Origin: Thermoflexales bacterium
Lineage (GTDB): Bacteria > Chloroflexota > Anaerolineae > B4-G1 > DUEL01
NCBI GenBank assembly: GCA_014360895.1
Contig: JACIWQ010000001.1
Location: 16,287-80,286 of the forward strand
Direction: 5' to 3'
DNA: 64,000 nt
The position numbers were made by a program, and so were the translations under genes. Under the pieces are notes generated by a model, which was not told the DNA's origin, did no database searches, and saw nothing but the letters and a program-made list of their open reading frames with translations. Positions 1,632 to 63,815 of the stretch are shown piece by piece (position 1 is the stretch's first letter; the number at the start of each line of letters is the position of its first letter).

Positions 1632-1736
1632 CCCGCCCATCCTGGGACAACGTTTTTGTTTCCATTTTACCACATCCGGAGGTCTGTTGTCTACTGTAAG
1701 GATTTACAGGTGTTTTTTCTAGTTTTTTCAAAAGCA

Positions 1737-1774
1737 AAAGCCCTCCTGCAGGGAAGTCTGCAGGAGGGCCTTTT
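1737..1774 (-). terminator. Rho-independent terminator after rplM-rpsI (GC hairpin gccctcctgcag/ctgcaggagggc followed by a U-run on the minus strand)
   Basis: Perfect 12-bp inverted repeat with 6-nt loop. On the minus-strand RNA it is followed by CUUUUGCUUUUG. Confidence 0.6.
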
Positions 1775-1807
1775 CCGTGCCTTTCGCAGCCTTTGCGGCC
1801 CTTCGCG

Positions 1808-2209: not shown

Positions 2210-2228
2210 CGGTTCTCTCCTCGTCCCC

Positions 2229-2666: not shown

Positions 2667-2691
2667 TCCTTGCTTCTACGATTCGCTGAGT

Positions 2692-3432: not shown

Positions 3433-3433
3433 G

Positions 3434-3489
<56 letters not shown>

Positions 3490-3498
3490 GATTTGTGG

Positions 3499-3900
3499 TT
3501 AGACCAGTTCCAGCACCACCATGGGGGCCGCGTCGCCCTTGCGGGGGCCCAGTTTGGTGATGCGGGTGTACCCGCCGGGCCGGTTCTGGTAGCGCGGCGC
3601 AATCTCATCAAAGAGTTTCTTGACCAGGTCCACCCGTTCCCCCTCGGGGGTGACGACCCAGCGGTTCATGCGGGCCGCCGCCAGACGGCGGGCATGGACG
3701 CCGTAGGCCGGGTCCTTCGCCGCCAGCCCCCGCTTGGCCAGGGTGATGAGTTTCTCCGCATGCCCGCGAATGGCCTCGGCCTTCGCTTCCGTCGTCTCTA
3801 TCCGCTCGTGGTAAATGAACGCCGAAACCAGGTTCCGAAACAGGGCCCGGCGATGGCCGCTGGAACGATTCAGTTTCTTTCCTGCCACGCGATGTCGCAT
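3499..3900 (-). CDS. rplQ: 50S ribosomal protein L17
   Basis: L17 sequence ([23 protein letters not shown]...). Confidence 0.95.
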
Positions 3901-3901
3901 C

Positions 3902-4909
3902 TTACAACTCTCCCGATTCGTCTAATTCTTCTTCCTTCTCCGGTGGCTGAGGCAGATAGGCCAGGTATCCGGCCGCGCCCAGTTTTTCCATTAACTCCGC
4001 CATAGACTTATCGCCGAAGTTGCGGATGGTCCGGACGGCCTCGTCGCCCCGGCTGAGCACTTCCAGGACTTCTCCGACCCGCGAGATGCCCGCCCGCTTC
4101 AGGGCATTGTAGACGCGCGCGGTCAGCCCCAGAGTCTCTATCGGGATCTCGTAGACCCGGGCGGGGATTCCCCGCTCCTCCTCCCCCACCAACTCCGGCT
4201 CCTCCGTGATGCCGGCGATGAGGCGGAAGTGAGTGACCAGAATCCGGGCCGCCTCCTTGAGGGCCTCCAGCGGGCCGATGCGGCCGTCGGTCCAGATCTC
4301 CATGTTCAGCCGGTCGTAGTTGGTCCGCTGGGCGACCCGCGCCCGCTCCACGTTGAACGCGACCCGCCGGACGGGACTGAACAGGGCGTCCACCGGAAGT
4401 TCGCCGATGGAGCGGCGCTCCCGCTCTTCGGCGGGCGAATACCCCCGTCCCCGCTCCACGGTAAACTCCATTTCCACTTTCGCCTCGGGCGAATCGGTCG
4501 TGAAGAGATAGAGGTCCGGGTTGAGAATCTCTATCTCCGGCGGCGCCTGGATGTCCCCGGCAGTCACCACGCCGTCCCCCCGGACGGAGAGGGTCATGCG
4601 CGTCGGGCCGTCGCCGTCCAACTTCAGGCGCAGTTGCTTCACCTGGAGGAGGATTTGCATCACGTCCTCCCGCACGTGCGGGATGGTCGCAAATTCGTGC
4701 GGGACGTCGTAGATTCGGACAGAGGTGACGGCCGCCCCGGGAAGGGAGGAGAGCAGGACCCGCCGCAGGGCGTTCCCCAGCGTGATCCCATATCCGCTCT
4801 CCAGCGGGCCGATGACAAACCGGCCGTACTGCTGGGTCAGCACCTCTTTTTCAATTTTCGGCAAAACCGGTGCGGCAAATCGGGGTTCCCTCTGTGCAGT
4901 CATCGCCAC
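3902..4909 (-). CDS. rpoA: DNA-directed RNA polymerase subunit alpha
   Basis: 335 aa with alpha NTD/CTD motifs. Canonical alpha-operon position. Confidence 0.95.
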
Positions 4910-5548
4910 CTACCGAGAGTAGTACTCCACGACCAGTTGCTCGTTGATCGGGATGTCCACATGCTCCCGCCTGGGCATTCCCAGGACCCGGGCGGAGAGG
5001 TCCGCCGCGTCCAGGGAGAGCCAATCGGGAACCCTCATCTCGTCCAGCATCTCGGCGCGTTCCTGGAAATACGGCCGCCGGCGGCTCCCCTCCCGCACGG
5101 CAATCCGGTCACCGGGCCGGACCAGATAGGACGGGATGGTAACCCGTCGGCCGTTGACGGTGAAGTGGCCATGCTGAACCAGTTGGCGGGCCTGGGCGCG
5201 CGAGTCGGCGAAGCCCAGCCGATAGACCACGTTATCCAGGCGGCGCTCCAGCAGGATGAGCAGATTCTCGCCGGTCAGGCCGGGCGTCCGCAGCGCCTCC
5301 CGGAAGTAGCGGCGAAACTGCCGCTCCAAGATGCCGTAAACCCGCTTGACTTTCTGCTTTTCCCGCAACTGGCGGAAGTAGTCCGTGGGCTGTCCCCGCC
5401 GGAAACGGGCAATCTGTCCGTGCTGTCCGGGCGGGTAATCCCGGCGCTCCAGGGCGCACTTGGGCGACATGCAGCGCGCGCCCTTCAGGAACAACTTCTG
5501 TCCTTCGCGACGACACAACCGACAAACCGGGCCTGTGTATCTGGCCAT
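4910..5548 (-). CDS. rpsD: 30S ribosomal protein S4 (zinc-finger form)
   Basis: [26 protein letters not shown]... S4 with N-terminal Cys cluster. Confidence 0.95.
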
Positions 5549-5581
5549 ACCCTGACTCCGTACTCCTTATTCCGTGAATGC

Positions 5582-5977
5582 TTACACCCGACGCTTCTTC
5601 GGCGGCCGGCAACCGTTGTGCGGGATGGGCGTTACATCGGTGATAGAGCGGATTTTCAGCCCCGCCGCCTGCAGGGAGCGGATGGCCGCTTCCCGCCCCG
5701 GGCCCGGCCCCTTGACCAGCACATCCACCTCGGTCACCCCGTTATCCAGGGCGTCTTTGGCCGCGCGCTGGGCCGCCTGACGGGCCGCGAAGGGCGTGCT
5801 CTTGCGCGAACCCTTGAAGCCCACCAGCCCCGCACTCGCCCAGTTGATGACGTTCCCCTGAGGGTCGGTGATGGTGATGATGGTATTGTTGAAACTGGCG
5901 TGAATGTGGGCCACGCCGCGCGGGATCGCGCGGCGCACCCGCTGGGTAACTCTCCGGCGTCTTTGAGCACGAGACAT
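5582..5977 (-). CDS. rpsK: 30S ribosomal protein S11
   Basis: S11 core motif ([18 protein letters not shown]). Confidence 0.95.
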
Positions 5978-5994
5978 AGCTAACTCCGTAAAAA

Positions 5995-6029
5995 CGTGAA
6001 AAGTGAAACGTGAAACGTGAAACGTGAAG
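5995..6029. repeat. Tandem heptamer array (CGTGAAA) x5 in the rpsM-rpsK spacer
   Basis: cgtgaaa agtgaaa cgtgaaa cgtgaaa cgtgaag, preceded by an actccgta motif. Confidence 0.85.
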
Positions 6030-6037
6030 GGTGGGTT

Positions 6038-6427
6038 TTACTTCTTCTTGGCGCCCCGGCGGCGGCCACGGCCAGGAACGGTCTTGCGCGGCCCCCGTTT
6101 GGTGCGCGCGTTGGTCCGGGTGCGCTGACCGCGCACCGGCAGGTTCATCCGGTGGCGCAACCCCCGATAGCACCCGATCTCTATCAGGCGCTTGATATTC
6201 ATCTGGACCTCGCGCCGCAGGTCGCCCTCCACCTTGTACTCGCGGTCAATAATCTCGCGCAGACGGGCCACCTCGGCCTCACTAAGGTCTTTCACCCGCT
6301 TATCCGGGTCCACCCCGGCCTTGCGCAGAATCTGATTGCTCAGGCTGCGCCCGATACCGTAGATATAGGTCAGACCGATCTCCACCCGTTTGTCTCTGGG
6401 CAGGTCTACACCAGCGATACGAGCCAT
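6038..6427 (-). CDS. rpsM: 30S ribosomal protein S13
   Basis: [26 protein letters not shown]... canonical S13. Confidence 0.95.
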
Positions 6428-6463
6428 ACGTCCTCCAACGGAATGCGTAAATACGTGTATTGA

Positions 6464-6577
6464 TTAGCCCTGTCGCTGCTTATGCTTCGGGTTCTCGCAG
6501 ATGACCCGAATCACGCCCTTGCGACGGATGATTTTGCACTTGGGACAGCGCCGTTTCACAGACGGTGAGACTTTCAC
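6464..6577 (-). CDS. rpmJ: 50S ribosomal protein L36 (Zn-ribbon type)
   Basis: Manual translation gives [37 protein letters not shown] with a C-x2-C-x12-C-x4-H motif. GTG start, preceded by an AGGAGG RBS. Too short for the ORF track. Confidence 0.85.
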
Positions 6578-6719
6578 GTTATCCTCCTGGTCTGAATACG
6601 TTCTTCCCCCCACAATTACACTTCATCGGAAATAGGACGCAGATGAACGCGGACGAGCACAGATTTCCCTAAAAGATACGTGCTGCGCCACCTGGCGCTA
6701 TTCCCGATAAAGTCTATTA

Positions 6720-7145
6720 TCAAGACACTCGGACCAGGGCTTCCCGGGCGCGTCGTTGCGGGATACTGGCCAAGCTCTCTTCTACCTCTTCAGCAGGCCC
6801 CAGAAAGTCAAAAATGCTGATTTCTTCGTTAATCGCGCACTTCTCGGGATCCCAGATTATCATCGTCCGGTCCCGGCTGATTTCAAATTTCTCCCTCTCT
6901 GCCGGGTCTGCATTGTACAGTGTCGGAATCCACCAGAGCGGCACAGATAGCCGTCGACCATCTGTCAGCGCGATGTGCATATATTCTTCGTCAAACCACA
7001 CCTGGTGAATCCGGGCCTCGCGCGGGAAGGTGTAGGCCGAGACCGGATACTGGACCTCGTACTTCTTAACCTGCACCTGTTCTTCGGACGGCTTTCCCTT
7101 TGTAAACATACCACTGTTCCAGTAAATATTCACGATGCTGCTCAA
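6720..7145 (-). CDS. DUF2442-like small protein (TA-like pair partner). The true start is probably internal, near 7073-7109.
   Basis: MHIALTDGRRLSVPLWWIPTL... resembles DUF2442. Lower GC than flanks. Sits in the slot normally occupied by infA. Confidence 0.5.
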   Translation of the reverse strand: MSSIVNIYWNSGMFTKGKPSEEQVQVKKYEVQYPVSAYTFPREARIHQVWFDEEYMHIALTDGRRLSVPLWWIPTLYNADPAEREKFEISRDRTMIIWDPEKCAINEEISIFDFLGPAEEVEESLASIPQRRAREALVRVS

Positions 7146-7353
7146 TGATCCGCAGGGCCCGTTGTAATTCTTCTCTCCTCAGGGCACGTCCGGCACGCGC
7201 CACCTCAATCTCCGGCTCCAACCAGATTTTCGCGTCGTTCCGATCGTCCTGCGTGCCTTTCCCTACATGAACGCTGGCCCGTGCCTCATAGCGGGCATCG
7301 TAACTGTGAAACCAGAAAATCAGCGATCCCTCCTGAAGGACCTTGGGACTCAT
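7066..7353 (-). CDS. DUF4160-like small protein (TA-like pair partner)
   Basis: FWFHSYDARYEARASVHVGKG motif resembles DUF4160, which commonly pairs with DUF2442. Immediately downstream of map. Confidence 0.5.
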   Translation of the reverse strand: MSPKVLQEGSLIFWFHSYDARYEARASVHVGKGTQDDRNDAKIWLEPEIEVARAGRALRREELQRALRIIEQHREYLLEQWYVYKGKAVRRTGAG

Positions 7354-8136
7354 TCAAAGCCCTTTTGCCCAAATATGCCACGGCGTCAGGATTTCCGCCT
7401 CCCCGTCCCGGATCAGAAGGGTGTGTTCAAAGTAGGCCGTCAGTTTGCCGTCCACGGAGACGACCGTCCAGTGGTCGGGCAGGGTCCGTACCCGGTAGTC
7501 GCCCGCCAGGACCATAGTCTCTATGGCGACGGTCATTCCCGACCGCAACAGCGGCCCCCGCCCCGGCTCTCCGTGGTTGGGAATCTGCGGCGGCTCGTGC
7601 ATCTGCCGACCGATGCCGTGGCCGGTGTATTCCCGCACCACGTTGTAGCCCCGGGACTCCACGTAGTTCTGAATGGCGGCGGAGATGTCGCCGACGCGGT
7701 TTCCGGCCCGGGCCCGGGCGATCCCGGCGTAGAGAGCGCCCTCCGTCACCTCCAGCAACCGCCGGGCCTCCGGGCCCACGTCCCCCACCGGCAGGGTGAT
7801 GCCCGCATCGCCATGGTAGCCGTCGTAGATGGCCCCGACGTCTATGCTGATAATGTCCCCTTCTTTCAGGACGCGCGGGCCGGGAATCCCGTGGACCAGT
7901 TCCTCGTTGACCGAAGTGCAGATCGCAGCCGGGAACGGATGCGGACTGCCCGGCGGATAGCCCTTGAAGGACGGGATGCCACCCAGGCGTCGGATCAGTT
8001 CTTCCGCCTTCTGGTTCAACTCCGCCGTGGTGACGCCGGGCCTTACCCACTCCCGCATCCGGTCCAGGACCTCGGCGACGATGCGCCCGGCCCTGCGCAT
8101 TTTTTCAATCTCGCCTGCCGACTTCAGTTGAATCAT
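7354..8136 (-). CDS. map: Methionine aminopeptidase type I
   Basis: 260 aa with MetAP metal-ligand motifs (HGIG..., D..ISIDVG). Confidence 0.93.
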   Translation of the reverse strand: MIQLKSAGEIEKMRRAGRIVAEVLDRMREWVRPGVTTAELNQKAEELIRRLGGIPSFKGYPPGSPHPFPAAICTSVNEELVHGIPGPRVLKEGDIISIDVGAIYDGYHGDAGITLPVGDVGPEARRLLEVTEGALYAGIARARAGNRVGDISAAIQNYVESRGYNVVREYTGHGIGRQMHEPPQIPNHGEPGRGPLLRSGMTVAIETMVLAGDYRVRTLPDHWTVVSVDGKLTAYFEHTLLIRDGEAEILTPWHIWAKGL

Positions 8137-31629: not shown

Positions 31630-31835
31630 AGGGGGCGAAGCCATCCCACAGCCCGGCCGTCATTGCGAGCTCCCCAAGGGGGCGAAGCAATCCCCCCCGT
31701 CGCTTCTGGGAATTGCTTTGGCCACGTCGCGCCACGCGCCGAAGGCGCTCGCGCCGAGGCGAGCGGCTGCTTCGCTGCGCTCACAGTGACGACCTTGCCG
31801 CGTGGCAGGCGCTTCGCGCCCTCGCAATGACCCTT
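31630..31835. repeat. REP/MITE-like palindromic element: GTCATTGCGAGC ... CGAAGCAATCC ... GGAATTGCTTTG ... CTCGCAATGAC
   Basis: Terminal inverted repeats GTCATTGCGAG (31659) and CTCGCAATGAC (31821). Same family as 33911-33995 and 61029-61303. Confidence 0.8.
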
Positions 31836-33910: not shown

Positions 33911-33995
33911 GAGATTGCTTCGGCCCGTGGGGGCCTCGCAATGACCTCCTACGCGCTCGCAGGGTCATTGCGAGCGGCAAAGCCGCGAAGCAATC
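33911..33995. repeat. REP-like nested palindrome GATTGCTTCG...CTCGCAATGAC...GTCATTGCGAGC...CGAAGCAATC
   Basis: Fully symmetric 85-bp element of the same family as 31630-31835. Confidence 0.85.
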
Positions 33996-38753: not shown

Positions 38754-41042
38754 CTACTGGCTATTGCAGCGTCTTTCCGGCTGCACTTCTGGAAACGCCA
38801 CCACATCCTCCGCCAGACGCTGGCCCGTTCCGTCATACGCCGGAATCCGCTCCAGCGTCTCCGGATGATACATCCCCACCCGCAGGATCAGCGGCCCCTC
38901 CGGCCGCTTCCCCAACGGAAGCCAATGGGTATCCAGCACCCGCTCCCCTCTCCGCCACCACGACGTCGGATAATCCCCGCCTCGCGGCGGCCCGTCATGC
39001 TGCGAGACCAGATTCCCCTCCCCATCCAGCAGGTGTACAAAGACGGTATAATCCTCCCTCACCTCCTCCTCTGCCCGCCAGTGAAGTGTCACCGTCAAAT
39101 ATTCCTGGCCTCCTTCCTGCTCCCACGACAGACCATACCCGTCCAGCCGGATGGTATCCCCCAGACGGTAATCGGTAGGGCAAGAAGGAGGCGGCGGCGA
39201 ATGGGCCGGGAGCAGGCGCCAGGGACCCAGGGCCACCATATCGCCGGATTGATCCTGGAGGGGAATGCGACCGGTTTGCCCGTCGGTCAGGCCGATACGG
39301 AGCCAGTAGAGGCCCGGAGCCGGAGCCCAATCGGGGATGGAAAGGATGTGGGTCTGGCGGACAATCTCCCCTGGCTTCCAGAGATCGCTGGGATAGAGGG
39401 TGCCACCCAGCCAGGTGTCTTCTCCGGCCACATACCGGGTCGGGTCCTGCGGGCCGAACTGAACCCATATCCGGTAGCGCTCCGTCAGAGAGATCGGTGT
39501 ATACCAGTAAAGGGTCAGCGTTACCGGATGTCCGGATTTCATCGGGCCCCGAAAAATCTCATATCCGAGGAGTTGCAGGCCGTTCTGAAAGTTTACGTTT
39601 ACCGACTGAACGCCCCTCGGGATTTGCTGGACGGGACGGGTCAGGGTGAAAGCCGGGCGGATGTAATGCCAGGGTATATAGGCATTGAATGCCAGGGCAA
39701 CTCCAGCGATGGCCCAGAGCACCAGGTGGGGGGCTTTCCAGCGAGTATATTGGGACAGCCCATATGCGGTGAGAATGGCGACCGGCGCGATGGTGGGAAA
39801 GAGCAACCGACCGTAGGGAGCGCCTGTAGCCAGGGCCCAGCGCACCAGCGCGATCGCGTTCAGCCCGAAAGCCAGCGCGAACAGGAATAGAGCACACCGG
39901 GTGGGGTGGGGCAGGCCCCCCCAGGAACCATCCGGGCGAAGCGCGCATAGTAATCCGATCCCGGCCAGGCCCATAAGCGTCGCGATGCCCCAGTAGACGG
40001 GCCTGTCCACCAGGATCAGTCCCCAGCCGAAGGCCGCCCAGTAGGTTTGGAAAACGGTCCACGCTTCCCTCAGGCCGAAGTGGGCCAGGGGAATTTGCCC
40101 TGCAAAGTGCGGACCAAATCCCAGCGGGTCACCGTAGAGCATGAGTCCCCGTAGATACCACCAGAGGCTCGGAGCCAGCGCAGCCACCAGGAAGAGACCG
40201 GCATCCCGAAGGCGCTTTTCCCATGAAGCCTGCTGGCAAATCGTGGCCAGACTTCCGATGGGCAGGAGCAGCAGTCCGCTCTGTTTGGTCAGCAGCGCCA
40301 GTCCGGCAATGCCCCCCAGGACGGCCCACTGACGTCCTGTGCCTCTCTGTATGCAGGATGGGATGTGGGCAAAAAACAGGGTGCAGAGGGCAATCAGCAG
40401 GTTGTCGTTGGTCACCCCCGCGGATAGAGCAACGAATTGGGGATTCAGGGCGACTATAGCGGCTGCTCCCAGGGCCATCCAGGGGCGATTCGGCCAGAGA
40501 CGACATGCCAGGGTGTGGGTGGAGAAGATGGTGATAGCACCGAAGCCCAGCGAAAGCATGCGCAGGAGATAAAGGGCTGGAACCGTATCGCCTTTTGGTC
40601 TCCAGACCAGGCGAACGTAGAAGTTCTTGTTCCAGGGGTCAGGGCCTGCGGTGGGAGCCCAACCTATCACCCAGTTGGGGTTGGGCACCAGCAGAGCGGG
40701 CAGGTCGCGCATCTCTGTCCAGGAAGTCAACAGGGCGCCCACCGCGTAGTAAAGGGGAGGCGCATAGAAAACTTTTGCCTCGGCGTATTCCAGCGACCGG
40801 GCCACATCCGCGCCGGTCAGCAGCCGATGTTGGGGCATCGCTCGGGGGGGCAGCGCGTGGTGGACAGTGATGTACCGGATGGTGTTGAGGTGGAAAGGTT
40901 CATCTGGGGACTCAAAAGGGGGGATGGTCAGGGCGAAGAGCACTCCCAGGGCCAGGAAGATCCCGATCAGCAGATGAACACTCTTTCGGGCAGGGGGGCG
41001 TCGGATCCACGCGACAGGGACTCTCTCCATACTGCTTTTCAT
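38754..41042 (-). CDS. GT-C glycosyltransferase, PMT/ArnT-like, paralog 3 of 3 (two C-terminal repeat domains)
   Basis: DE motif PFESPDEPFH. ATGA overlap with the upstream GT4 gene. Confidence 0.8.
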   Translation of the reverse strand: MKSSMERVPVAWIRRPPARKSVHLLIGIFLALGVLFALTIPPFESPDEPFHLNTIRYITVHHALPPRAMPQHRLLTGADVARSLEYAEAKVFYAPPLYYAVGALLTSWTEMRDLPALLVPNPNWVIGWAPTAGPDPWNKNFYVRLVWRPKGDTVPALYLLRMLSLGFGAITIFSTHTLACRLWPNRPWMALGAAAIVALNPQFVALSAGVTNDNLLIALCTLFFAHIPSCIQRGTGRQWAVLGGIAGLALLTKQSGLLLLPIGSLATICQQASWEKRLRDAGLFLVAALAPSLWWYLRGLMLYGDPLGFGPHFAGQIPLAHFGLREAWTVFQTYWAAFGWGLILVDRPVYWGIATLMGLAGIGLLCALRPDGSWGGLPHPTRCALFLFALAFGLNAIALVRWALATGAPYGRLLFPTIAPVAILTAYGLSQYTRWKAPHLVLWAIAGVALAFNAYIPWHYIRPAFTLTRPVQQIPRGVQSVNVNFQNGLQLLGYEIFRGPMKSGHPVTLTLYWYTPISLTERYRIWVQFGPQDPTRYVAGEDTWLGGTLYPSDLWKPGEIVRQTHILSIPDWAPAPGLYWLRIGLTDGQTGRIPLQDQSGDMVALGPWRLLPAHSPPPPSCPTDYRLGDTIRLDGYGLSWEQEGGQEYLTVTLHWRAEEEVREDYTVFVHLLDGEGNLVSQHDGPPRGGDYPTSWWRRGERVLDTHWLPLGKRPEGPLILRVGMYHPETLERIPAYDGTGQRLAEDVVAFPEVQPERRCNSQ

Positions 41043-42223
41043 CCTGATATCCAGTGGATCAGAAACGCCGCTGTCTGGCGGGCGATGCGGTCCCAGGAGA
41101 AGTCGGCAGCCAGGGCCCGCGCGCCCTCCTCCAGCCGGGCCCGCAGGCCCGGGTCGCGCCAGAGCCGCAGGACCGCCTCCGCCAACGCGCCCGCATCCCG
41201 GGGCGGCGCCAGGAGCATATTCTCCCCGTCCCGCACCTCCGGCAACGGCACCGCCGGACGAGTGGTGACAATGGCCCGCCCGTGGGCCAGGCAGGCGTGC
41301 AGCGTCCCCCGCCGGAAGGAGACGCCGTCCCGGTAGGGCAGGACGCAGACATCCGTCGCCAGCAGGCCCGCCGAGACCGACAGGGGGTCGGTGTAGCCGG
41401 TCCAGTGGACCCGCTCCGTCAGCCCCAGGTCGGCGATGAGGCCGTCTATGAAGGCGGCGTAGGCCCGGTTGGTGGGGTCAGAGGTGCCCACCCGCCCGCC
41501 GACCATCAGCAGGTGGGCCGGAACGCCCCGCTCCACCAGCATGCCCAGCGCCCGGATCAATTCCTCGCCGCCCTTGCTCTCGTTGAGGAAGCCGAAGTAG
41601 CCCAGGAAGAGGTCATCGGGGCGAACGCCCCAGCGGGCCCGTTCAGCGTCCCGGTCGTAGTTCGGAGGCGGGGTCGGCGGGATATTGCTCCCGATGGGGA
41701 TCACGGCCAGGCGGTCCCGGGGAATCTCCCCCTCCAGCCGGAGGTAGTCCTCGTGGTTGGTGACGATGACGCCGTCGGCGCGGCGGGCCAGCATCCGGAC
41801 GACGCGCCAGCGCAGGGGTCCGGCCTTGGGGAAGAGATAGGGGACCCGTAGGTCGTGGAAGGTCACAACGACCGGCGGGCGCGCCAGAGGCGAGGGAAGG
41901 AAGTGGACCGCCGGGTGCATCCCGTAGGCGGCGGCCTGGTACTGGAGGTTCAGGACGTCCAGGCGCGCCTCCCGGGCCACCCGCAGGACCTCCCGCCAGC
42001 AACCCCAGCGCCAGGAGGGGACAGAGCGGTGGACGGGGAGGCTATACCGTGCTTCGTATTCCGTTTTGCGGGTGGGGCCGGTGATGACGTGGACGTCGTG
42101 ACCCAGCGCGGCCAGCGCCTCCGCCAGCCGGAGGGTGAAGTCCCCCACGCCGCCCTCATCGGGGGGAAATTCGCCGGTGACCAATCCGATGCGCATAGTG
42201 ACTCCCTGGAGGGCGCGCTTCAC
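41039..42223 (-). CDS. Glycosyltransferase family 4 (GT-B, retaining)
   Basis: Glyco_trans_1-like C-terminal half (E..GG..E.. motifs). Confidence 0.8.
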   Translation of the reverse strand: MKRALQGVTMRIGLVTGEFPPDEGGVGDFTLRLAEALAALGHDVHVITGPTRKTEYEARYSLPVHRSVPSWRWGCWREVLRVAREARLDVLNLQYQAAAYGMHPAVHFLPSPLARPPVVVTFHDLRVPYLFPKAGPLRWRVVRMLARRADGVIVTNHEDYLRLEGEIPRDRLAVIPIGSNIPPTPPPNYDRDAERARWGVRPDDLFLGYFGFLNESKGGEELIRALGMLVERGVPAHLLMVGGRVGTSDPTNRAYAAFIDGLIADLGLTERVHWTGYTDPLSVSAGLLATDVCVLPYRDGVSFRRGTLHACLAHGRAIVTTRPAVPLPEVRDGENMLLAPPRDAGALAEAVLRLWRDPGLRARLEEGARALAADFSWDRIARQTAAFLIHWISG

Positions 42224-43140
42224 CGCACCATGGCGCGCACCACCTGCCGGTATGCCCGGATGCGCTCTGCCCGCAGGGCCCGCTTATGGCCCAGGAGCCA
42301 CTTGGCCCCTTCTACGCCCATCTGCCAGAGATAGTTGCCCAGAATGACCGTCCGCAGAATCCCTGCCGCGAGCGGACCGTGGTACTTGCGGAAATAGCGG
42401 ATTTTGCTGGTCTGGAAGTGAACATGGCGGGCCGGGAGGACCTGCTCGCTGCTCTTGCCCTCGTGGTGAATCACCCGCGCGGTGGGGAGATAGACGACCC
42501 GCCAGCCGGCCTCCCGAAACCGACGGCACCAGTCCAGTTCCTCCGAGTACATGAAAAACCCCTCGTCCAGCGGCCCCACCTGCTCTACCGCCTCCCGCCG
42601 GGCCATCAGCGCCGCGCCGGTCACCCAGTCCACATCCTGAATTTCGTCGTCGGGGCGGTCCAGGATGTAGTAGTGCGTCAGCAGGCGACGGGGGGCGTAG
42701 GGCTGGAGCCAGGTGGACTCAAAGAGAGCCGTTGTCAGAGTGGGGAAGCGGCGGCGAGAGGATTGCACCGTCCCGTCGGGGTTCAGGAGTTGCGGGCCGA
42801 CGACGCCGACATCGGGGTGGGCGTCGGCGAAGGCGACCATCCGCTCCAGGGCATCCCCCACCACCTCGGTATCCGGGTTCAGCAGGAGGACGTAGCGGCC
42901 CCGGGCGACGGCCAGTCCCTGGTTGTTGGCGGCGGTGAAGCCCCGGTTGTCGGCGTTGGCAATGAGGTGCACCTGGGGAAACTCCGCCCGGACCATCTCC
43001 GCGCTCCCGTCGGTAGAGCCGTTATCCACGACGATGACCTCCAGTGAGCAGGCAGGCTGGCTGGCGAGGACGGAGTGAAGACAGCGCCGGAGCAGGTCCC
43101 GGACGTTCCAGTTGACGATGAGGACAGAGAGGTCGGGCAT
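42220..43140 (-). CDS. Glycosyltransferase family 2
   Basis: LSVLIVNWN...DNGSTDGS...NPD...D GT2 motifs. Start at MPDLSV. The ORF track's upstream extension is a translation of the 8-bp repeat. Confidence 0.85.
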   Translation of the reverse strand: MPDLSVLIVNWNVRDLLRRCLHSVLASQPACSLEVIVVDNGSTDGSAEMVRAEFPQVHLIANADNRGFTAANNQGLAVARGRYVLLLNPDTEVVGDALERMVAFADAHPDVGVVGPQLLNPDGTVQSSRRRFPTLTTALFESTWLQPYAPRRLLTHYYILDRPDDEIQDVDWVTGAALMARREAVEQVGPLDEGFFMYSEELDWCRRFREAGWRVVYLPTARVIHHEGKSSEQVLPARHVHFQTSKIRYFRKYHGPLAAGILRTVILGNYLWQMGVEGAKWLLGHKRALRAERIRAYRQVVRAMVR

Positions 43141-43142
43141 GA

Positions 43143-43177
43143 ATGAGCAAATGACAGAATGACAGAATGACAGAATG
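43143..43177. repeat. Tandem 8-bp repeat (ATGACAGA) x3-4 in the 5' leader of the GT2 gene
   Basis: atgagcaa atgacaga atgacaga atgacaga, immediately upstream of the GT2 start codon. Confidence 0.85.
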
Positions 43178-43184
43178 GCCGATG

Positions 43185-44150
43185 TCAAAACCGGCGCCGG
43201 ACGATAAAGTCGGCCAGGTCCAGAAGGGCAGTCTTGTATTCGGAGGACGGGAAGGGTCGCAGGGCCTCTTTCGCTTCCCGGATGTAGTTGCGAGCGACCT
43301 GGAGGGAGCGGTCAATGGCCGGGGAGGCTGCGACCGCCTGGACTGCTTCCCGCACCGTCAGGTCGGATGAGCCGGAGGTGAGAATCTGTCGGAGGGCCGG
43401 GTGATCGCCGCTTTGCTCCAGAAAGAGCAAGACGGGTAGCGTGACCAGTCCCTGGCGGAGGTCGCTGCCGACCGGCTTGCCCAGGGTCTGCTCGTCGGCG
43501 ACGAAGTCCAGAATGTCGTCCACGACCTGAAAGGCCAGACCCAGTTGCTCCCCGTAGGTCCGCATTGCGGCGATGGTTTCCTCGGCGGCGTGGGCCAGGA
43601 TGGCTCCCGACTCCGCCGCCAGGGCAATCAACGAGGCGGTTTTGGCGTAGATGCGCTGCTCGTATTCCTGGAAGGTGGGCACTTTCCCGCGCCCGTCAAA
43701 CATCTGGCGGATTTCGCCGTTACAGATGACCATCAGCGTCTCGGCGAACCGCTGCACCAGGCGGACGTTGGCCGTTTGGGCGACCAGATAGGCCGCCCGC
43801 GCGAAGAGGTAGTCGCCCGTCAGGACAGTGGCGGCAGGGGACCAGCGGGCGTTGAGGGTCTCCGCCCCCCGGCGCATCAGGGAGCCGTCAATGAGGTCAT
43901 CGTGGACCAGAGTGGCAGTGTGGAGCATTTCCACACCCGCGGCCGCGAAGAGGGCCACATCCGGGTCCGCCCCGCACAGGCGAGCGGAGAGGAACACCAA
44001 AGCCGGACGAAGCCGTTTACCTCCGCTCCCCAGCAGAAGTTCCACCGCGCCGGTGATCGCCGGATGCTGGTCCGGCGCGGATTCCTGTAACAGACCCTCC
44101 GCTCGCTGAAGGTCGTCCTGGATCGGGTGGAAAAAAGGCAACGATGACAC
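43185..44150 (-). CDS. Polyprenyl diphosphate synthase (trans-IPPS, IspA/IspB-like)
   Basis: Two DDxxD motifs (LVHDDLID, VVDDILD). Confidence 0.88.
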   Translation of the reverse strand: MSSLPFFHPIQDDLQRAEGLLQESAPDQHPAITGAVELLLGSGGKRLRPALVFLSARLCGADPDVALFAAAGVEMLHTATLVHDDLIDGSLMRRGAETLNARWSPAATVLTGDYLFARAAYLVAQTANVRLVQRFAETLMVICNGEIRQMFDGRGKVPTFQEYEQRIYAKTASLIALAAESGAILAHAAEETIAAMRTYGEQLGLAFQVVDDILDFVADEQTLGKPVGSDLRQGLVTLPVLLFLEQSGDHPALRQILTSGSSDLTVREAVQAVAASPAIDRSLQVARNYIREAKEALRPFPSSEYKTALLDLADFIVRRRF

Positions 44151-50164: not shown

Positions 50165-50968
50165 ATGAGCACACTGCAGAAAATCGCCATCACCGGCAAA
50201 GGGGGAGTCGGCAAGACCACCCTGGCCGCCCTGCTGGCCCACATCTACGCCCAGGAGGGGCGCAACGTCATCGCCATTGACGCCGACCCGGCGGGCGGAT
50301 TGGCCGGGGCCCTGGGCTTCCCACCCGAACTGGCGGAGAACCTCACCCCCATCTCCGAGATGGAAGACCTCATCTACGAGCGGACCGGCGCCAAACCCGG
50401 CTCCTTCGGCGGTTTCTTCAGCCTGAACCCTCGCGTGGACGACATCCCCGACCGCTTCAGTATCCTCCACAACGGCGTGCGGCTGCTCAAACTGGGCACG
50501 CTGGAGAAAGGCGGGTCCGGCTGCCTCTGCCCGGAGAACGCCCTGCTGAGGGCGCTGGTCACCCACCTGCTCCTCTACCGGGGCGAGATGCTGATTATGG
50601 ACATGGAGGCCGGGGTGGAGCACCTGGGACGGGCCACCGCCCAGGCCGTGGACGCGATGCTGGTGGTGGTGGAACCGGGGAGACGGAGCATAGAGGTCGC
50701 CGAACGGATCCGGGAACTGGCGGGCGACATCGGGCTCAGGCAGCTGTTCGTCGTGGGCAACAAAGTCCGCACCGACGCCGACCGGGCCTTCATCGCCGGA
50801 CAGAGCCCGCTGCCGGTGGTGGGCTACCTCTCCGCCAGCCCGAGGGTCATTGAGGCCGACCTGCGGGGTATGGCGGTGTATGAGGCCGCGCCGGAGGCCG
50901 TGGAGGAGGCCCGGGCCATCGCGCGGCAACTGGAAGCATTGGCGGAAGGGGCCGAACCGGAAGGGTGA
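50165..50968 (+). CDS. CooC/AcsF-like MinD-family P-loop NTPase (CxC motif, putative Ni-insertion accessory protein)
   Basis: KIAITGKGGVGKTT Walker A. GSGCLCPENA CxC motif. Confidence 0.75.
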   Translation: MSTLQKIAITGKGGVGKTTLAALLAHIYAQEGRNVIAIDADPAGGLAGALGFPPELAENLTPISEMEDLIYERTGAKPGSFGGFFSLNPRVDDIPDRFSILHNGVRLLKLGTLEKGGSGCLCPENALLRALVTHLLLYRGEMLIMDMEAGVEHLGRATAQAVDAMLVVVEPGRRSIEVAERIRELAGDIGLRQLFVVGNKVRTDADRAFIAGQSPLPVVGYLSASPRVIEADLRGMAVYEAAPEAVEEARAIARQLEALAEGAEPEG

Positions 50969-58769: not shown

Positions 58770-60497
58770 TCAGGCAAAAAGGGATACGAAGGCAAACTGC
58801 TCCACGTCCACCAGTCCCTGATCCGTCAACTTCAGCGCCGGGATGACTTCCAGGGGCAGGAAACTCAGCGTCATCAACGGGTCTGGCAGAGCCGTCCCCA
58901 GCGATCGCGCCGCCTGGGTCAGATTGTCCATCTGAAGACGGACCGTCTCTACGGGCTGGTCCGACATCAGGCCGGCGACGGGCAATGGCACGGTGGCCAG
59001 TATCTGCTCCTCCACCGCGACGGCCAGGCCGCCGCCCATCCGGGCCACCGCGCGCGCGGCGGTCATCATAGAGACGTCGTCGCAACCGGCGACAATGAGG
59101 TTATGGGCATCGTGCCCCACGCTCCCCGCCAGGGCCCCCCGACGAAGCCCCAACCCCTGCACAAAACCGAGCCCCACGTTGCCGGTCCCCCGGTGCCGCT
59201 CTATGACGGCCAGTGTCAGGATGTCCCGCTCCGGATCGGCTATGACCTCCCCGTCCCGCACGGGGAGTTCCTCCACCCGGTGCTCCGTCAGGACCTGGTC
59301 GGGGATGACGCCGATGATCCGTACCCGAACGCTCCGGGCGCCTGCGTCCGGTGCCCCGATCCGCAGGGAGACCCGGTCCCAGTCCACCCGCACCGTCTCC
59401 CGCACCGGCGAATCGTCCGCCAGCGGTTCGTCCCATCGGCCCACCGGCTCTCCGGCCTGGGCCACCAGATGACCGGCGGAAAAGACCATCTCCGGGCGGA
59501 ATTTTTTCAGGTCCGAGAAGACCACCAGGTCGGCCCGCAGGCCCGGGGCGATAGCTCCCCGGTCACGCAGGCGGAACCACTCGGCCGCGTTCAGGGCGGC
59601 CATCTGGATGGCCGTCACCGGGTCCAGCCCTTCAGCGACCGCCATCCGGATGAGGTGGTCCAGATGCCCCTCATCCAGCAGGTCGGCCGGATGGCGATCG
59701 TCGGTGCAGAAGGCGCATCGGCGGCTGTTTTGGGGGGTGATGGCCGGTATCAGGGCCCGCAGGTTTTTTGCCGCCGTGGATTCCCGGATAAAGACCCGCA
59801 TGCCCAGGCGGAGTTTCTCCAGCATCTCAGCGGCGGTGGTGCACTCGTGGTCCGAACCGGGACCGGCGCCCACGTATGCCTGAAGCCATTTCCCGCTGAT
59901 CCCCGGGGCGTGGCCATCTATCACCTGTCCCCGAAACGACTCCACTTTTGCCAGCACGTCGGGGAAACCCAGGACCAGGCCAGGGACATTCATTAATTCG
60001 GCCAACCCCAGAACGCGAGGGAGATTCGCCAATGGCTGGAGGTCGGCCGCGCTCAACTCGGCGCCAGCGGTCCCCATTGTGGTGGCCGGTACGCAGGAGG
60101 GAAGGTTCACGTAGACGGTTAACGGCAGACCCTCCGAGGCCTCCAGCATATAGCGAATCCCGGCCGTCCCGGCCACGTTGGCAATTTCGTGAGGGTCGCA
60201 GACAACCGTCGTCGTCCCCCGAGGCACGACAGCACGGGCGAACTGATACGGGGTCACCATAGAGGACTCTATGTGGACATGGGCATCTATCAGGCCGGGG
60301 CAGACGTAGCGACCTCCCAGGTCTATTTCCTGGCGGCTCTCATATCCACTCCCGATGCCGACGATATGACCATCGGCAATCGCGACATCGGCCTCCATAA
60401 TTTCGGCCGTGTACACATTGATGACCCGTCCGTTTCGGAGCACCAGTTCGGCTGGCTCGTCACCCCGCGCGATAGGGAGAAATCGGGTCAGTTCCAT
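58770..60497 (-). CDS. ade: Adenine deaminase
   Basis: Start at MELTRF with a GAGGAGG RBS. Amidohydrolase HxH (GLIDAHVHIESS) and adenine-deaminase C-terminal domain. Confidence 0.85.
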   Translation of the reverse strand: MELTRFLPIARGDEPAELVLRNGRVINVYTAEIMEADVAIADGHIVGIGSGYESRQEIDLGGRYVCPGLIDAHVHIESSMVTPYQFARAVVPRGTTTVVCDPHEIANVAGTAGIRYMLEASEGLPLTVYVNLPSCVPATTMGTAGAELSAADLQPLANLPRVLGLAELMNVPGLVLGFPDVLAKVESFRGQVIDGHAPGISGKWLQAYVGAGPGSDHECTTAAEMLEKLRLGMRVFIRESTAAKNLRALIPAITPQNSRRCAFCTDDRHPADLLDEGHLDHLIRMAVAEGLDPVTAIQMAALNAAEWFRLRDRGAIAPGLRADLVVFSDLKKFRPEMVFSAGHLVAQAGEPVGRWDEPLADDSPVRETVRVDWDRVSLRIGAPDAGARSVRVRIIGVIPDQVLTEHRVEELPVRDGEVIADPERDILTLAVIERHRGTGNVGLGFVQGLGLRRGALAGSVGHDAHNLIVAGCDDVSMMTAARAVARMGGGLAVAVEEQILATVPLPVAGLMSDQPVETVRLQMDNLTQAARSLGTALPDPLMTLSFLPLEVIPALKLTDQGLVDVEQFAFVSLFA

Positions 60498-60641
60498 CGG
60501 ATACCTCCTCGGATTTGTGCCTGAAATTCTGCCTGCCGAAAGACACAACTCCTCCCCTCCGTCCACACCCCCTATTCCTGCCATGTCGGCCGGTTTCTCC
60601 TCCCATATATGACCTCTTCCCCGCTCCATGCCCCGTTTCGG

Positions 60642-60900
60642 ATGTGGATAAACCGCCGATTTCTGTGGATAACTCCAGCTACCTGTGGATAACCCCTTTG
60701 GACGTGGCGACTCTTTTCAAAGAACTCGCCCTCCCCCGATGGTCTCTCTTCCGGGTCCTTTCACTGTTTTCCCACGTCTATCCCCGTCCTCCGAAAACAG
60801 TATCTGCTTTCCCATCCCCCACTAATACACCCTGTCAGTCCCCGCTACACAAGGATTGGGACTCTTTCACCCCACTCGTCCGGTTATCCACAAATCCACA
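60642..60900. promoter_or_regulatory. Cluster of DnaA boxes: 4 perfect TTATCCACA and 1 AAATCCACA
   Basis: TGTGGATAA at 60642, 60663 and 60683, phased 21 and 20 bp apart in the same orientation. TTATCCACA at 60884 is inverted. AAATCCACA at 60892. A lower-GC stretch lies at 60900-60960. Confidence 0.6.
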
Positions 60901-61028
60901 GGCGCTATGATGACTACGGACAAAAGGGCAGAAAAGTACTATAGGTTGATCATTGCGAATACCCCATGCGTTGAGCGCACTCGGACAAATCAGAAACTCT
61001 GGTGATCGTTGCGCGGGCGCGAAGCGCC

Positions 61029-61303
61029 CGAAGCAATCTTTAGAAGCGATGGGAGATTGCTTCGCCCTTCGGGCTCGCAATGACGGTTGGGAGGTCATTG
61101 CGAGTTTGGTTGGCCGAACGACGGAGATGGGTGGTTCACGCTTCGGGCTCGCAATGACGGTTGGGAGGTCATTGCGAGGGGCGATAGCCCCGAAAGCCTG
61201 CCACGAGCAGAGCGTGGTGGCAATCCCCATATAGTGGTGGGGGGATTGCTTTGCCCTTCGGGCTCGCGATGACCTTTCGCCGTCTGCAGCGGCTCGCAAT
61301 GAC
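61029..61303. repeat. Array of REP-like hairpins (CGAAGCAATC/GATTGCTTCG; CTCGCAATGAC-ggttgggag-GTCATTGCGAG x2; further CTCGCRATGAC copies)
   Basis: Same family as 31630-31835 and 33911-33995. Track ORFs 60835..61542 and 60953..61234 are translations of these repeats. Confidence 0.85.
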
Positions 61304-61340
61304 CTCTGGCGAAACAAGGGAGAGAACAGGAGATGCTCTC

Positions 61341-62009
61341 TCATCGCAACAATGCCACTGCGAGAGCTGAGTACGTGAATATCCCAATGCCATTGAGCAC
61401 TCCTCCGAGCGCCCACCATGCCAGATGTTTTCGCCGTTCCAACCAGGCCAGAAGCAGACAAATCGTCGCGATGATCAAAGCAAAGGAGAGGATAACCCAC
61501 AGGCTCACATGACCAATCATCCGGGCATCCAGATACCGCCACGCATGGGCCTGGTAGGCCATCTCCTCATACCAGGAGTGGACGAGAGTACCTCCCGCCG
61601 TGATGAGCGCTGTGGTAAGGCCGGTGCCAAGTCGGGGACGTAGCCGGAGGAAAAGATACCCCAGTTGCAGGAAAGCGAACCCCCATCCGGCAACGATGTA
61701 ATCAGGGGTGTCCAGCACTTTGAATAGTGAATAGTCGTAGATCAACGTGCGGACCACCCGGGCATGGTAGAAGTCGGTCAGCAGTTGAGGGAGATTACAG
61801 GCCAGGGCAAAAACCAGCAGCCGCAGAAACAGAGGATTCCGGCTGATTCCGATGTAAACCAGGTAAAGGGCCACCATGAGCCATGCAATGAGGGAAAACA
61901 TCCATGGCCACCGAAAAAGGAGCCCGGTGAGAGAAACCCCGATGACAACCAGCGCCATAGAGATGCCAACCAGAAGGTCAGTGCGACGATTCATCCCTCT
62001 CCCCCGCAA
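61341..62009 (-). CDS. Hypothetical integral membrane protein (~6 TM)
   Basis: Hydrophobic segments throughout; no family recognised. Confidence 0.5.
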   Translation of the reverse strand: MRGRGMNRRTDLLVGISMALVVIGVSLTGLLFRWPWMFSLIAWLMVALYLVYIGISRNPLFLRLLVFALACNLPQLLTDFYHARVVRTLIYDYSLFKVLDTPDYIVAGWGFAFLQLGYLFLRLRPRLGTGLTTALITAGGTLVHSWYEEMAYQAHAWRYLDARMIGHVSLWVILSFALIIATICLLLAWLERRKHLAWWALGGVLNGIGIFTYSALAVALLR

Positions 62010-62937
62010 GGAAGTCTTGAACAGTCTGAAGCGTTGTGTATGCAGGTTGCCAGTTCAGTTCCCGGCGGGCTTTCTCGTTGCTGGCTACAAGAGGGAACCG
62101 GGTCAGGTTGACCTGACCGGGATGGGTGACACAGTCCATCTGCTCTATCTGCCAGAGAAGGCCAAAGACCAGACGGGCGACAGGCCAGAGGAAGTTCATC
62201 AATTGCTTCCCCGCCCTGCTCCAGATCTCCCGCCAGGGAAGCCAATCGTCGGGGGTCGCATTGAAAGGTCCCCGGGCATCGCTTTGTAGGCTTTTCTCTA
62301 TCAAATCCACAAGGTCGTCCTCATGGACAAACTGACCGGGAGCGCGTCCTCCATCAACAATAACCGCGCGGGGGCGTCGGAGAAAGTCTGCCAGAGGCCC
62401 CCGGGCGCGGGGTCCGAGAATCCCCGGAGGACGCAATATGATGCATGCAGTTTGCGGATGTTCTTTTGAGAACTCCTGACAAAGTCTCTCCACCTGGCCT
62501 TTATGCACACCGTAGGGGTAGGTGGGATTGGGGCGGAGGGGATGCTCCTCAGTCAACGGGATGGGGTTATCGGACCAGGCACCATAGGCCACGATGCTGG
62601 AAAGAACGACCAGGCGACGAATTCTCGCTTCCCGGCAAGCTCTCAAAACGTTGGCTGTTCCGCCTACATTGACCTGTTCCATCAGGGCCAGGCGGCGAGG
62701 ATGGGGAAAGAGGATGAACGCGGCGTGAACCAACGTGTCTATCCCATAGTGCCGAAGGATTTCTCCCAGCGCCGGGTCGCGAATATCCAGCGTTTGGAAG
62801 ACTCCATTGGGGGGAGGAGGTGTTTCCAGGGGCTGGATATCCAGACCAACGATTTGCTCTACGTTGGGGTTGGCTCCCAGTCGGGCCATCAACCGCTGGC
62901 CCACGTATCCTGCTGCCCCGGTAACCGCGACGTTCAT
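61978..62937 (-). CDS. NAD-dependent epimerase/dehydratase (extended SDR)
   Basis: Start at MNVAVTGAAGYVGQ (GxxGxxG motif). Confidence 0.8.
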   Translation of the reverse strand: MNVAVTGAAGYVGQRLMARLGANPNVEQIVGLDIQPLETPPPPNGVFQTLDIRDPALGEILRHYGIDTLVHAAFILFPHPRRLALMEQVNVGGTANVLRACREARIRRLVVLSSIVAYGAWSDNPIPLTEEHPLRPNPTYPYGVHKGQVERLCQEFSKEHPQTACIILRPPGILGPRARGPLADFLRRPRAVIVDGGRAPGQFVHEDDLVDLIEKSLQSDARGPFNATPDDWLPWREIWSRAGKQLMNFLWPVARLVFGLLWQIEQMDCVTHPGQVNLTRFPLVASNEKARRELNWQPAYTTLQTVQDFLAGERDESSH

Positions 62938-63815
62938 CCTTTCCTCCCCGATTTCTGAGACGGAGCTGACTCGTTCCGGCCTGTGGACCGGGCCAATCGG
63001 TTGTAGAGTGTCCGCAGGTTGGCCGCATGAAGACGGGGGGCTTCTCCGTTGAGCGCCACGCGGGGAACGCCGCATTTCTCCACGTCGGTTTTGAGGAGGG
63101 TGGCCCGGCGCCGTTCGTTGTGCACCGCTTCGGCCGCAATCCGCTGAATGGTTTCCAGATACGCGATGTTGGTCCGCAGCGCATCTTTGACCTCCCCCCG
63201 CAGAATGACCTCCCCGTGTCCCTGAACAATGCTTTCGGGTTCTATGGCCTGGATTTTCCGGAGCGATTGTTTCAGCATCTCCGGATCACCGTCCACAATG
63301 GTGGGAATGGGCATCATGGCATCTCCGGCGAAGAGCACCAGGTCTTCTTCCACATAGATGGAGATGCCATCGTCGGAGTGGCCGGGGGTCTCAAAGATGC
63401 GCAGTGTCTTACCCCCCAGGGAGATGATCATTTCTCCCTGATCCAGCACGATGTCGGGCAGGCGGAGGGTGACATTCTCCAGGAGGTCCGGTGCTTCCAC
63501 CCGCGCGGCTTCCAGTCCCTCTTCCCCGGACGTGAGCAGGTGTTCGCGGCAGCGCGCGTGGGCGATAATGGGGACATCGGGGAACAGGCAAGCTCCGTAA
63601 ATGTGGTCGGCGTGGTAGTGGGTGTAGATGATGTAACGGAGGCCGGCCGGCGCCCGACGAGACAGGAACTGGAGGATGGCCTGGGTCTCTATCGGAAACG
63701 GGAGCGTATCCACCAGGACAGCTCCCGCTGGGGTCACGATGACGCCAGCGGTGACCTGGGTATAGAGATCGCTGGTAAAGAGGTAGATGTCGGCGGAGAC
63801 CCGTTCCTGGAGCAT
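62934..63815 (-). CDS. MBL-fold metallo-hydrolase
   Basis: HYHADH zinc motif. Start at MLQERV with an AGGAAGAG RBS. Adjacent to the epimerase start. Confidence 0.8.
   Translation of the reverse strand: MLQERVSADIYLFTSDLYTQVTAGVIVTPAGAVLVDTLPFPIETQAILQFLSRRAPAGLRYIIYTHYHADHIYGACLFPDVPIIAHARCREHLLTSGEEGLEAARVEAPDLLENVTLRLPDIVLDQGEMIISLGGKTLRIFETPGHSDDGISIYVEEDLVLFAGDAMMPIPTIVDGDPEMLKQSLRKIQAIEPESIVQGHGEVILRGEVKDALRTNIAYLETIQRIAAEAVHNERRRATLLKTDVEKCGVPRVALNGEAPRLHAANLRTLYNRLARSTGRNESAPSQKSGRKG

Follow-up and report, generated by a model that had tools for sequence, protein, structure and literature searches.

A probable chromosomal replication origin located away from dnaA in a Thermoflexales bacterium, and homologous modules across Chloroflexota

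Our analysis of a 64-kb stretch of the genome of an uncultured Thermoflexales bacterium (hereafter the window) identified a composite element at positions 60559-60960 which, judging from its sequence, is most likely the replication origin (oriC) of this organism. This reading rests on three properties taken together, namely a layout that matches published origin-unwinding modules, conservation as a unit while the neighbouring genes change, and a switch in GC skew at the homologous modules of related species. The analysis established the sequence anatomy of the element, its autonomous conservation, its homology to dnaA-linked origins, and the compositional switch at its homologues. By homology with characterised origins we infer that DnaA would bind, that the DNA would unwind and that replication would fire at this locus, as follows: DnaA would occupy three strong boxes (60643-60692) and an oppositely oriented tandem pair of boxes (60884-60900); an ATP-DnaA oligomer would grow from the tandem pair, over a 4-nt GC clamp, onto one strand of a triplet tract that begins at 60905; the oligomer would open the least stable DNA of the spacer (~60905-60960); and the replicative helicase would be loaded at this opened region, leading to bidirectional replication. 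The locus falls within a known class of elements. Mildly new are the phylum-wide occurrence of the composite, usually away from dnaA, and the weakness and possible misplacement of earlier BUS (basal unwinding system) calls for cultured Chloroflexi. The Thermoflexales subclade to which the window belongs also has a conserved non-canonical triplet tract.

The window encodes a cluster of ribosomal-protein, SecY, Adk, Map, EF-Tu/EF-G, and rpoB genes, followed by rpoD and uvrA, together with a ParA-like ATPase and metabolic genes. The element is flanked by two minus-strand genes (Table 1). The left neighbour had been called an adenine deaminase gene (ade) in the first-pass annotation, in agreement with our Pfam Adenine_deam_C match; a protein 100% identical to it has been deposited as coming from a Thermoflexales bacterium. 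The true start of ade is at position 60497, where a GGAGG ribosome-binding site precedes it, and with this start the boxes fall in an 843-bp spacer between the two genes. The right neighbour, a DUF6989 membrane-protein gene, is missing at the corresponding position in three close relatives (L002, L129, and L130). Scans of the 64-kb window for dnaA signature motifs and for the Pfam domains of dnaA and dnaN were empty, which bears out the earlier statement that neither gene is nearby; the G+C content of the window is 63%, and not 66% as had been given. A sigma-70 consensus scan found no promoter in the spacer, and a search against Rfam for a purine riboswitch or other structured RNA upstream of ade returned no match at E≤1 between 58 and 64 kb. 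We also noted a ParA/CbiA-family ATPase gene at window positions 50165-50968, ~10 kb from the module, whose position is kept in L002, L129, and L130; no ParB partner was found among its annotated neighbours.

Table 1. Features of the candidate origin and of its flanking genes, in window coordinates.
Feature	Position	Strand	Description
Adenine deaminase gene (ade)	58770..60497	-	Pfam Adenine_deam_C; left neighbour, outside the element
Outer weak DnaA-box-like site	60559..60567	+	CCGTCCACA; three mismatches, TCCACA core conserved
Conserved block	60600..60611	none	CTCCCATATATG; ~35 bp outside the three-box array
Three perfect DnaA boxes	60643-60651, 60664-60672, 60684-60692	-	TGTGGATAA on the plus strand; start-to-start 21/20 bp
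Spacer between array and tandem pair	60693..60883	none	191 bp; conserved islands, e.g. CCCCCACTAATAC at 60816-60828
Tandem DnaA-box pair	60884..60900	+	TTATCCACA + AATCCACA; 9-mer abutted by 8-mer; flanks the unwinding side
GC clamp	60901..60904	+	GGCG; 4 nt between boxes and triplet tract
DnaA-trio-like tract	60905..60919	-	plus strand reads CTA TGA TGA CTA CGG; minus strand 3'-GAT ACT ACT GAT GCC-5'
Candidate DNA-unwinding element	60905..60960	none	least stable duplex of the intergenic region
DUF6989 membrane-protein gene	61341..61994	-	right neighbour, outside the element

The perfect DnaA box TTATCCACA is present in exactly four copies in the window, all of them within 250 bp (60643-60892). 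Chance alone predicts 0.16 copies in 64 kb, and none of 100 dinucleotide-preserving shuffles gave more than one, so that the improbability claimed in the first-pass annotation for four perfect 9-mers was upheld. For an oriC, at least three DnaA boxes with at most one mismatch are expected within a few hundred bp, far above chance, and the element has four perfect ones. When one mismatch was allowed, ten further TTATCCACA-like matches were detected in the window, all of them scattered singletons; neither the perfect nor the one-mismatch scan revealed a second box cluster within the 60 kb left of the module. The three boxes that had been described as sharing one orientation at 21- and 20-bp spacing are on the minus strand (starting at 60643, 60664, and 60684). 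This array is oriented away from the unwinding side and is invariant or nearly so in relatives. The inverted perfect box and the adjacent AAATCCACA noticed ~200 bp further on were likewise recovered, at 60884-60892 (plus strand) and 60892-60900, respectively; AAATCCACA has two mismatches and overlaps the perfect box by one base, giving an 8-bp start-to-start offset.

Two conserved features lie outside the array. The outer weak site aligns to TTATCCACA in L002, to TCATCCACA in L129 and L130, and to TCTCCACA in L004, and its TCCACA core is invariant across all five relatives aligned. Closer to the array, five relatives share the invariant sequence CTCCCATAT (60600-60608), which accompanies the module even where, as in L004, a different gene flanks it; the version of this block in the Thermoflexales locus L064 is TCCCATAT. 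The block might serve as an outward promoter element or as a site for protein binding.

The opposite end of the module was compared with the basal unwinding system (BUS) of bacterial origins, a definition also attributed to Richardson (2016, 2019). In a BUS, a DnaA box, often in tandem and with the upstream box nearer to the consensus, precedes three or more DnaA-trios (3'-NAN-5', with 3'-GAT-5' as consensus), beyond which the DNA is AT-rich (Pelliciari et al., 2021; PMC8287927). The spacer between box and trios is at most 16 bp and most often 13, including a GC-rich region that averages 4 bp; up to two mismatches are tolerated in the first box and up to four in the optional second box; and the trio strand is the complement of the strand that reads 5'-TTATCCACA (PMC8287927). 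In the window, a perfect box and an 8-mer second box are followed by the 4-nt clamp GGCG and then by CTA (3'-GAT-5') as the box-proximal trio, so that the box-to-trio spacer is 12. Trios read CTA CTA… on the strand that carries 5'-TTATCCACA, a reading that draws in part on E. coli oriC. Only triplets 1 and 4 of the window tract are canonical. Since the middle adenine is confined to these two, the tract departs from the formal trio rule of at least three consecutive 3'-NAN-5' triplets, and three such triplets in a row are absent in every other frame of the trio strand too. Runs that follow this rule are found in homologous modules, for example those of L064, L014, L041, and L042.

The least stable 40-mer of the 843-bp spacer starts at position 60905, which is the first base of the first triplet. 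Its dG is -48.6 against a window mean of -60.8 (sd 4.4), ranking 136 among 63,961 (top 0.2%). The lower-GC stretch first reported at 60900-60960 was confirmed at 53-62% AT versus 37% in the window; it should be noted that the candidate unwinding element as a whole is only ~60% AT and that DNA of still lower stability occurs at several other intergenic sites of the window. We also considered, and rejected, trios in a different frame or on the opposite strand: the plus strand does have a periodic adenine (TAT GAT GAC TAC), but this is the wrong strand for the orientation of the boxes, no suitably oriented box is located rightward, and homology sets the register at GGCG/CTA. An unwinding element on the left of the three-box array was discarded as well, as neither a trio-like tract nor unstable DNA is present there.

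Past the low-GC stretch, the REP-like hairpins mentioned in the first-pass annotation correspond to hairpin-forming repeats at ~61010-61310, and six REP-like arms lie between the candidate unwinding element and the DUF6989 gene. The same palindromic family is found at 31659-31831 and 33933-33975, in units of ~47 nt with arms CTCGCAATGAC / GTCATTGCGAG. It is present in Logan contig L007, which derives from the same organism, and absent from the loci of all relatives, so that these repeats are a lineage-specific insertion and not a part of the origin.

Relatives were sampled as loci around ade orthologues, in tiles of 8-22 kb. In L002, L129, and L130, whose ade is 91-93% identical to that of the window, the cluster lies upstream of ade and the genes on its other side differ from those of the window. 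In L004 (ade 85% identical), it is located ~2.5 kb from ade with two genes intervening, between an epimerase gene, which is here the leftward gene, and a bPH_5 gene; this module retains its three boxes with 21/20-bp spacing, and its fourth box is found 240 bp further along. No box cluster was detected within 10 kb of ade in the relatives at 76-80% identity (L008, L131, and L132), and in L008 and L131 ade is only 27-57 bp behind its upstream gene, with no boxes between them. In the close relatives, 240-241 bp separate the first box of the array from the tandem pair. An alignment of five modules gave a mean identity of 69% for the spacer, within which the three boxes, the TCCACA outer core, the tandem pair, the 16 nt that follow the pair, and CTCCCATAT are invariant or nearly so. 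The triplet tract is almost invariant among the four closest relatives, in the subclade form CTA TGA TGA CTA YGA. Taking into account that the structure of the module is kept while its neighbours change, the element is selected as a unit that is not tied to the ade promoter.

Two further observations concern L004. Comparison of this locus with window positions 41039-44150 and 58770-63000 showed that a GT4-GT2-polyprenyl synthase block, ade, and the epimerase gene differ between the two in their side or strand around the module, with several rearrangements that break close to the module and leave its interior intact. A truncated gene beside the L004 module was considered as a possible recF, a neighbour that would have tied this module to the classical dnaA-dnaN-recF region, but it encodes an AAA_15/AAA_21-type ATPase (GPNASGKTTFLDV) and not RecF.

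A scan of one genome per GTDB species for three boxes at 21/20(±1) spacing returned at least 120 loci, and at least 63 loci carrying this array belong to Chloroflexota, with all classes represented. The tandem 17-mer TTATCCACAtATCCACA, which the window also has, accompanies the array in opposite orientation in at least 29 Chloroflexota modules, and in most of the other Chloroflexota modules listed the first box is separated from the tandem pair by 240-313 bp. Among these listed matches, the first triplet is CTA, exactly 4 nt past the tandem pair, in 27 of the 29 modules; a GC-rich clamp, mostly GCCC or GGCC, occupies the matching position in nearly all 29, and the typical tract reads CTA CTA/CGA… and runs into AT-rich DNA, with canonical tracts in many of these modules. 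The window tract is exactly in register with the CTA CTA CTA tracts of its homologues, including that of the Thermoflexales locus L064 (CTA CTA CTA CGA CTA). The full composite was found in ~30 other Chloroflexota species among the matches listed.

Motifs of dnaA were detected within the 8-kb tile in 2 of the 63 Chloroflexota loci versus 19 of the 57 non-Chloroflexota loci, among the matches listed, suggesting that an origin apart from dnaA is common in the phylum. The first-pass annotation had considered a relocated origin; our results support an origin apart from dnaA, but the word relocated is misleading for a phylum with this pattern. In the Dehalococcoidia locus L069 the composite lies directly downstream of dnaA, and in the Poribacteria loci L058/L089 it is beside dnaA, with L089 at chromosome coordinates 1-8000. 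The recurrent neighbours of the module vary by class (a ~335-aa unannotated protein with deoxynucleoside kinases, a BFN-domain protein, bPH_5, or an epimerase), and neither dnaA nor dnaN was found as a recurrent neighbour in the Chloroflexota loci listed. A literature search found no paper specific to Chloroflexota origins.

Several side observations came from the same set of loci. In 19 Anaerolineae/Chloroflexia loci, a ~335-aa protein with no Pfam match is encoded directly on the three-box side of the module (including L012, L013, L021, L024, L048, L052, L053, L060, L102, L113, L121, and L124) and is flanked, often on both sides, by deoxynucleoside kinase genes (PF01712). In Chloroflexales, the neighbour is a BFN-domain protein (PF02577). 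Arrays of 10-15 DnaA boxes in the same orientation, with a period of ~21 bp, are found next to the BUS-type module, or within a few kb of it, in some Chloroflexia/Anaerolineae (L092, on one contig with L021; L032; L104; and the second clusters of L009 and L097); these long arrays may titrate DnaA or belong to a split origin as its second part. In the 29 modules listed, CGA (3'-GCT-5') outnumbers every other triplet at trio positions 4 and 5 and also occurs often at position 2 (e.g. L013, L026, L060, and L121). Both this use of CGA and the CTA TGA TGA CTA YGA form of the window's subclade depart from the middle-adenine rule.

A replication origin is marked by a plus-strand GC skew that is negative to its left and positive to its right, regardless of the orientation of the element. 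The composite marks such an origin-type switch across the homologous Chloroflexota modules. Among the listed Chloroflexota loci that offered at least 1.5 kb of sequence on each side, the raw skew difference (right minus left) was positive in 26 of 34, with a mean of +0.066 (p=0.003; this and the other skew p-value below are optimistic, since the Chloroflexota loci tested come from related species and are not fully independent). The difference in dnaA-adjacent controls from other phyla was +0.072. Gene orientation is neutral at the module, with 49% of coding bases pointing away from it in the 34 loci, which shows that divergent transcription is not the source of the switch; as a candidate signal in its own right, a switch in gene orientation was absent, and in this phylum it speaks neither for nor against an origin. 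A weighted regression over 347 flanking genes gave a side effect of +0.030 (t=8.1), separate from that of gene strand, and of +0.047 (t=6.9) at third codon positions. At the level of loci, the strand-corrected difference was positive in 27 of 38 (t-test p=9e-5), and for loci with the full composite in 14 of 17, with a mean of +0.111; loci that lack the module had a mean of -0.017, and 33% of them were positive.

Within the window, same-strand genes have skews of -0.03 and -0.07 on the left (M23 peptidase and ade) and of +0.01, +0.04, and +0.08 on the right (DUF6989, epimerase, and MBL), and the difference is positive at all flank sizes in four close genomes. For the window locus alone, with only 2.7 kb on the right, the difference amounts to +0.078, which places it at the 88th percentile of arbitrary positions; as 12% of arbitrary window positions switch as much or more, this value by itself is only consistent with an origin. 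The cumulative GC skew of the window has its minimum at ~29 kb, at the boundary of the ribosomal-protein/rpoB block, a gene-driven signal that is uninformative at 60.7 kb. Genes that are highly expressed or essential run in the direction of replication and are often located near the origin. The ribosomal-protein, SecY, EF-Tu/EF-G, and rpoB cluster, rpoD, and uvrA (1-50 kb) are all directed away from the module, so that this translation/transcription block (1-33 kb) and uvrA would be co-directional with a fork leaving it; the three genes on the right of the module are directed toward it, which speaks against an origin.

Explanations other than a main origin have to be weighed against these results. 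High-affinity boxes clustered away from dnaA would also be expected of a site for DnaA titration or recycling, like E. coli datA/DARS or the B. subtilis DnaA-box clusters, which modulates the availability of the initiator and does not fire. In loci of the datA/DARS type, such an effect on the nucleotide state or availability of DnaA depends on IHF/Fis. The degenerate triplet tract and the modest AT-rich element are compatible with such a site, and the extra long same-orientation box arrays that some Chloroflexota have near the module indicate that non-origin arrays exist in the phylum. However, datA, DARS, and DnaA-box clusters are not known to have an unwinding module made of tandem boxes, GC clamp, and trios, whereas the element has one that is in exact register with canonical modules and under purifying selection; moreover, homologous modules are located at an origin-type skew switch and correspond to the dnaA-linked origin in L069 and L089. 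We regard titration or recycling as the sole role of the element as very unlikely. The degenerate trios of the window's subclade could also point to an auxiliary or decaying origin, or to one half of a split origin, with the main firing site elsewhere, for example by dnaA. Two box clusters are found a few kb apart in some Chloroflexota (L009, L097, and L021/L092), the Chloroflexia locus L110 has a triple box beside dnaA with no visible trio module, and the 64 kb of the genome analysed leave room for a second or stronger cluster elsewhere. Against this explanation, relatives keep the degenerate tract almost unchanged, which speaks against decay, the 60 kb leftward of the module contain no second cluster, and the skew switch is found at this very type of module and is strongest with the full composite, so that we consider a subsidiary origin unlikely, if somewhat less so than a titration site.

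DnaA is a transcription factor in many bacteria, and the first-pass annotation had raised DnaA control of the ade promoter. The module would then be a transcriptional operator through which DnaA regulates ade, or whichever gene reads leftward; the three boxes are indeed placed 146-195 bp upstream of the ade start, and CTCCCATAT, which lies between them and the leftward gene, might act as a promoter element. A DnaA-regulated promoter should keep its boxes linked to one gene across relatives, and for ade we found the opposite: the module of L004 is separated from ade and has the epimerase gene leftward, and in L008, L131, and L132 ade has no boxes, so the proposal of control over ade does not hold. 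Neither a sigma-70-type promoter nor an Rfam element was found in the regions scanned, and an operator would leave the trio module and the skew switch unexplained. Such an operator is the least credible of the explanations considered and extremely improbable; a secondary regulatory effect on the outward gene may exist alongside origin function.

If the element is the origin, it provides the most probable replication start of this genome, and with it the layout of its replichores. Peak-to-trough methods require an origin, and its position would permit growth-rate estimates from metagenomic coverage. The near-perfect composite found in dozens of uncultured Chloroflexota offers a simple sequence signature to locate origins, and predictors guided by dnaA may misplace those of Chloroflexota, given that they are usually not beside dnaA. 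The conserved non-canonical tract of Thermoflexales represents a natural test of how strictly DnaA needs the trio motif. The locus leaves our overall understanding of bacterial initiation unchanged.

A broader proposal, which we put forward tentatively and with some doubt, is that the true origin of most Chloroflexota (Anaerolineae, Chloroflexia, Thermoflexales, Thermomicrobiales, and others) consists of the array and an opposed tandem-box BUS, unlinked to dnaA/dnaN. As a further part of this proposal, the frequent CGA of Chloroflexota trio tracts is joined by the conserved CTA TGA TGA CTA YGA of the Thermoflexales subclade, which breaks the middle-adenine rule and would imply that single-stranded DNA is read differently or with the help of an additional factor. 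Should the phylum-wide rule hold, the weak BUS calls for cultured Chloroflexi would point to the wrong place; low genome coordinates are the usual location of dnaA. Such weak calls are listed in Table S1 of Pelliciari et al. (2021) for Anaerolinea thermophila, Roseiflexus RS-1, Chloroflexus aggregans, Thermomicrobium roseum, and Caldilinea aerophila (PMC8287927). They were made on DoriC-predicted origins, have boxes with 2-4 mismatches and 3-5 trios, and in three of the five cases are located at low genome coordinates (18-460) (PMC8287927). The uncultured relatives, by contrast, have the near-perfect composite, and the DoriC-predicted origins of these cultured species may be mispredicted.

Compared with Bacillus-type BUS (B. 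subtilis incC and the rows of Table S1), the element shares the tandem pair with the upstream box nearer to the consensus. Table S1 gives canonical examples in the 3'→5' direction as 9-mer, abutting 8-mer, 4-nt GC clamp, and trios (PMC8287927); in this notation, with fields separated by slashes, B. cereus reads AATAGGTGT/ATAGGTGT/TCGG/GATAATGAT… and Geobacter AATAGGGGT/ATAGGTGT/CGGG/GATGAC… (PMC8287927), and the window reads AATAGGTGT/TTAGGTGT/CCGC/GAT ACT ACT GAT GCC. The B. cereus, Geobacter, and Selenomonas rows have an abutting 8-mer as second box and a spacer of 12, exactly as the element does, and the 9+8 layout is listed for further species as well; in the Deinococcus row the second box is a full 9-mer and the spacer is 13 (PMC8287927). 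BUS origins and the element also have in common a 4-nt GC-rich clamp, 3'-GAT-5' as the first trio, and less stable DNA after it. The element differs from them in that the middle adenine is present in 2 of the first 4 triplets and a run of at least three trios is missing, in that its downstream DNA is only ~60% AT, in that the module is not between dnaA and dnaN, and in the addition of a three-box array that faces the opposite way ~190 bp upstream.

E. coli oriC lies between gidA/mnmG and mioC, ~40 kb from dnaA. This origin is likewise unlinked to dnaA and compact (a few hundred bp), with the strong boxes R1 and R4 in opposite orientation at its ends and the unwinding element just outside the box that faces it. 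In contrast to E. coli oriC, the window has no 13-mer repeats, the unwinding-side box of the element is a tandem 9+8 pair, and the flanking genes are different. The datA, DARS1/2, and B. subtilis DnaA-box clusters resemble the element in having several consensus boxes away from dnaA; unlike the element, they are not known to have a box-clamp-trio-unwinding module or to mark a replication-strand switch, whereas the homologues of the element do mark one. The dnaA-linked loci L069 and L058/L089 have the same parts in the same order and orientation, that is, the 21/20 array, the tandem pair, the clamp, the trios, and AT-rich DNA. They differ from the element in being directly beside dnaA and in having canonical AT-rich trio tracts, and ~166-185 bp separate the array from the tandem pair in these loci, versus 241 bp in the window.
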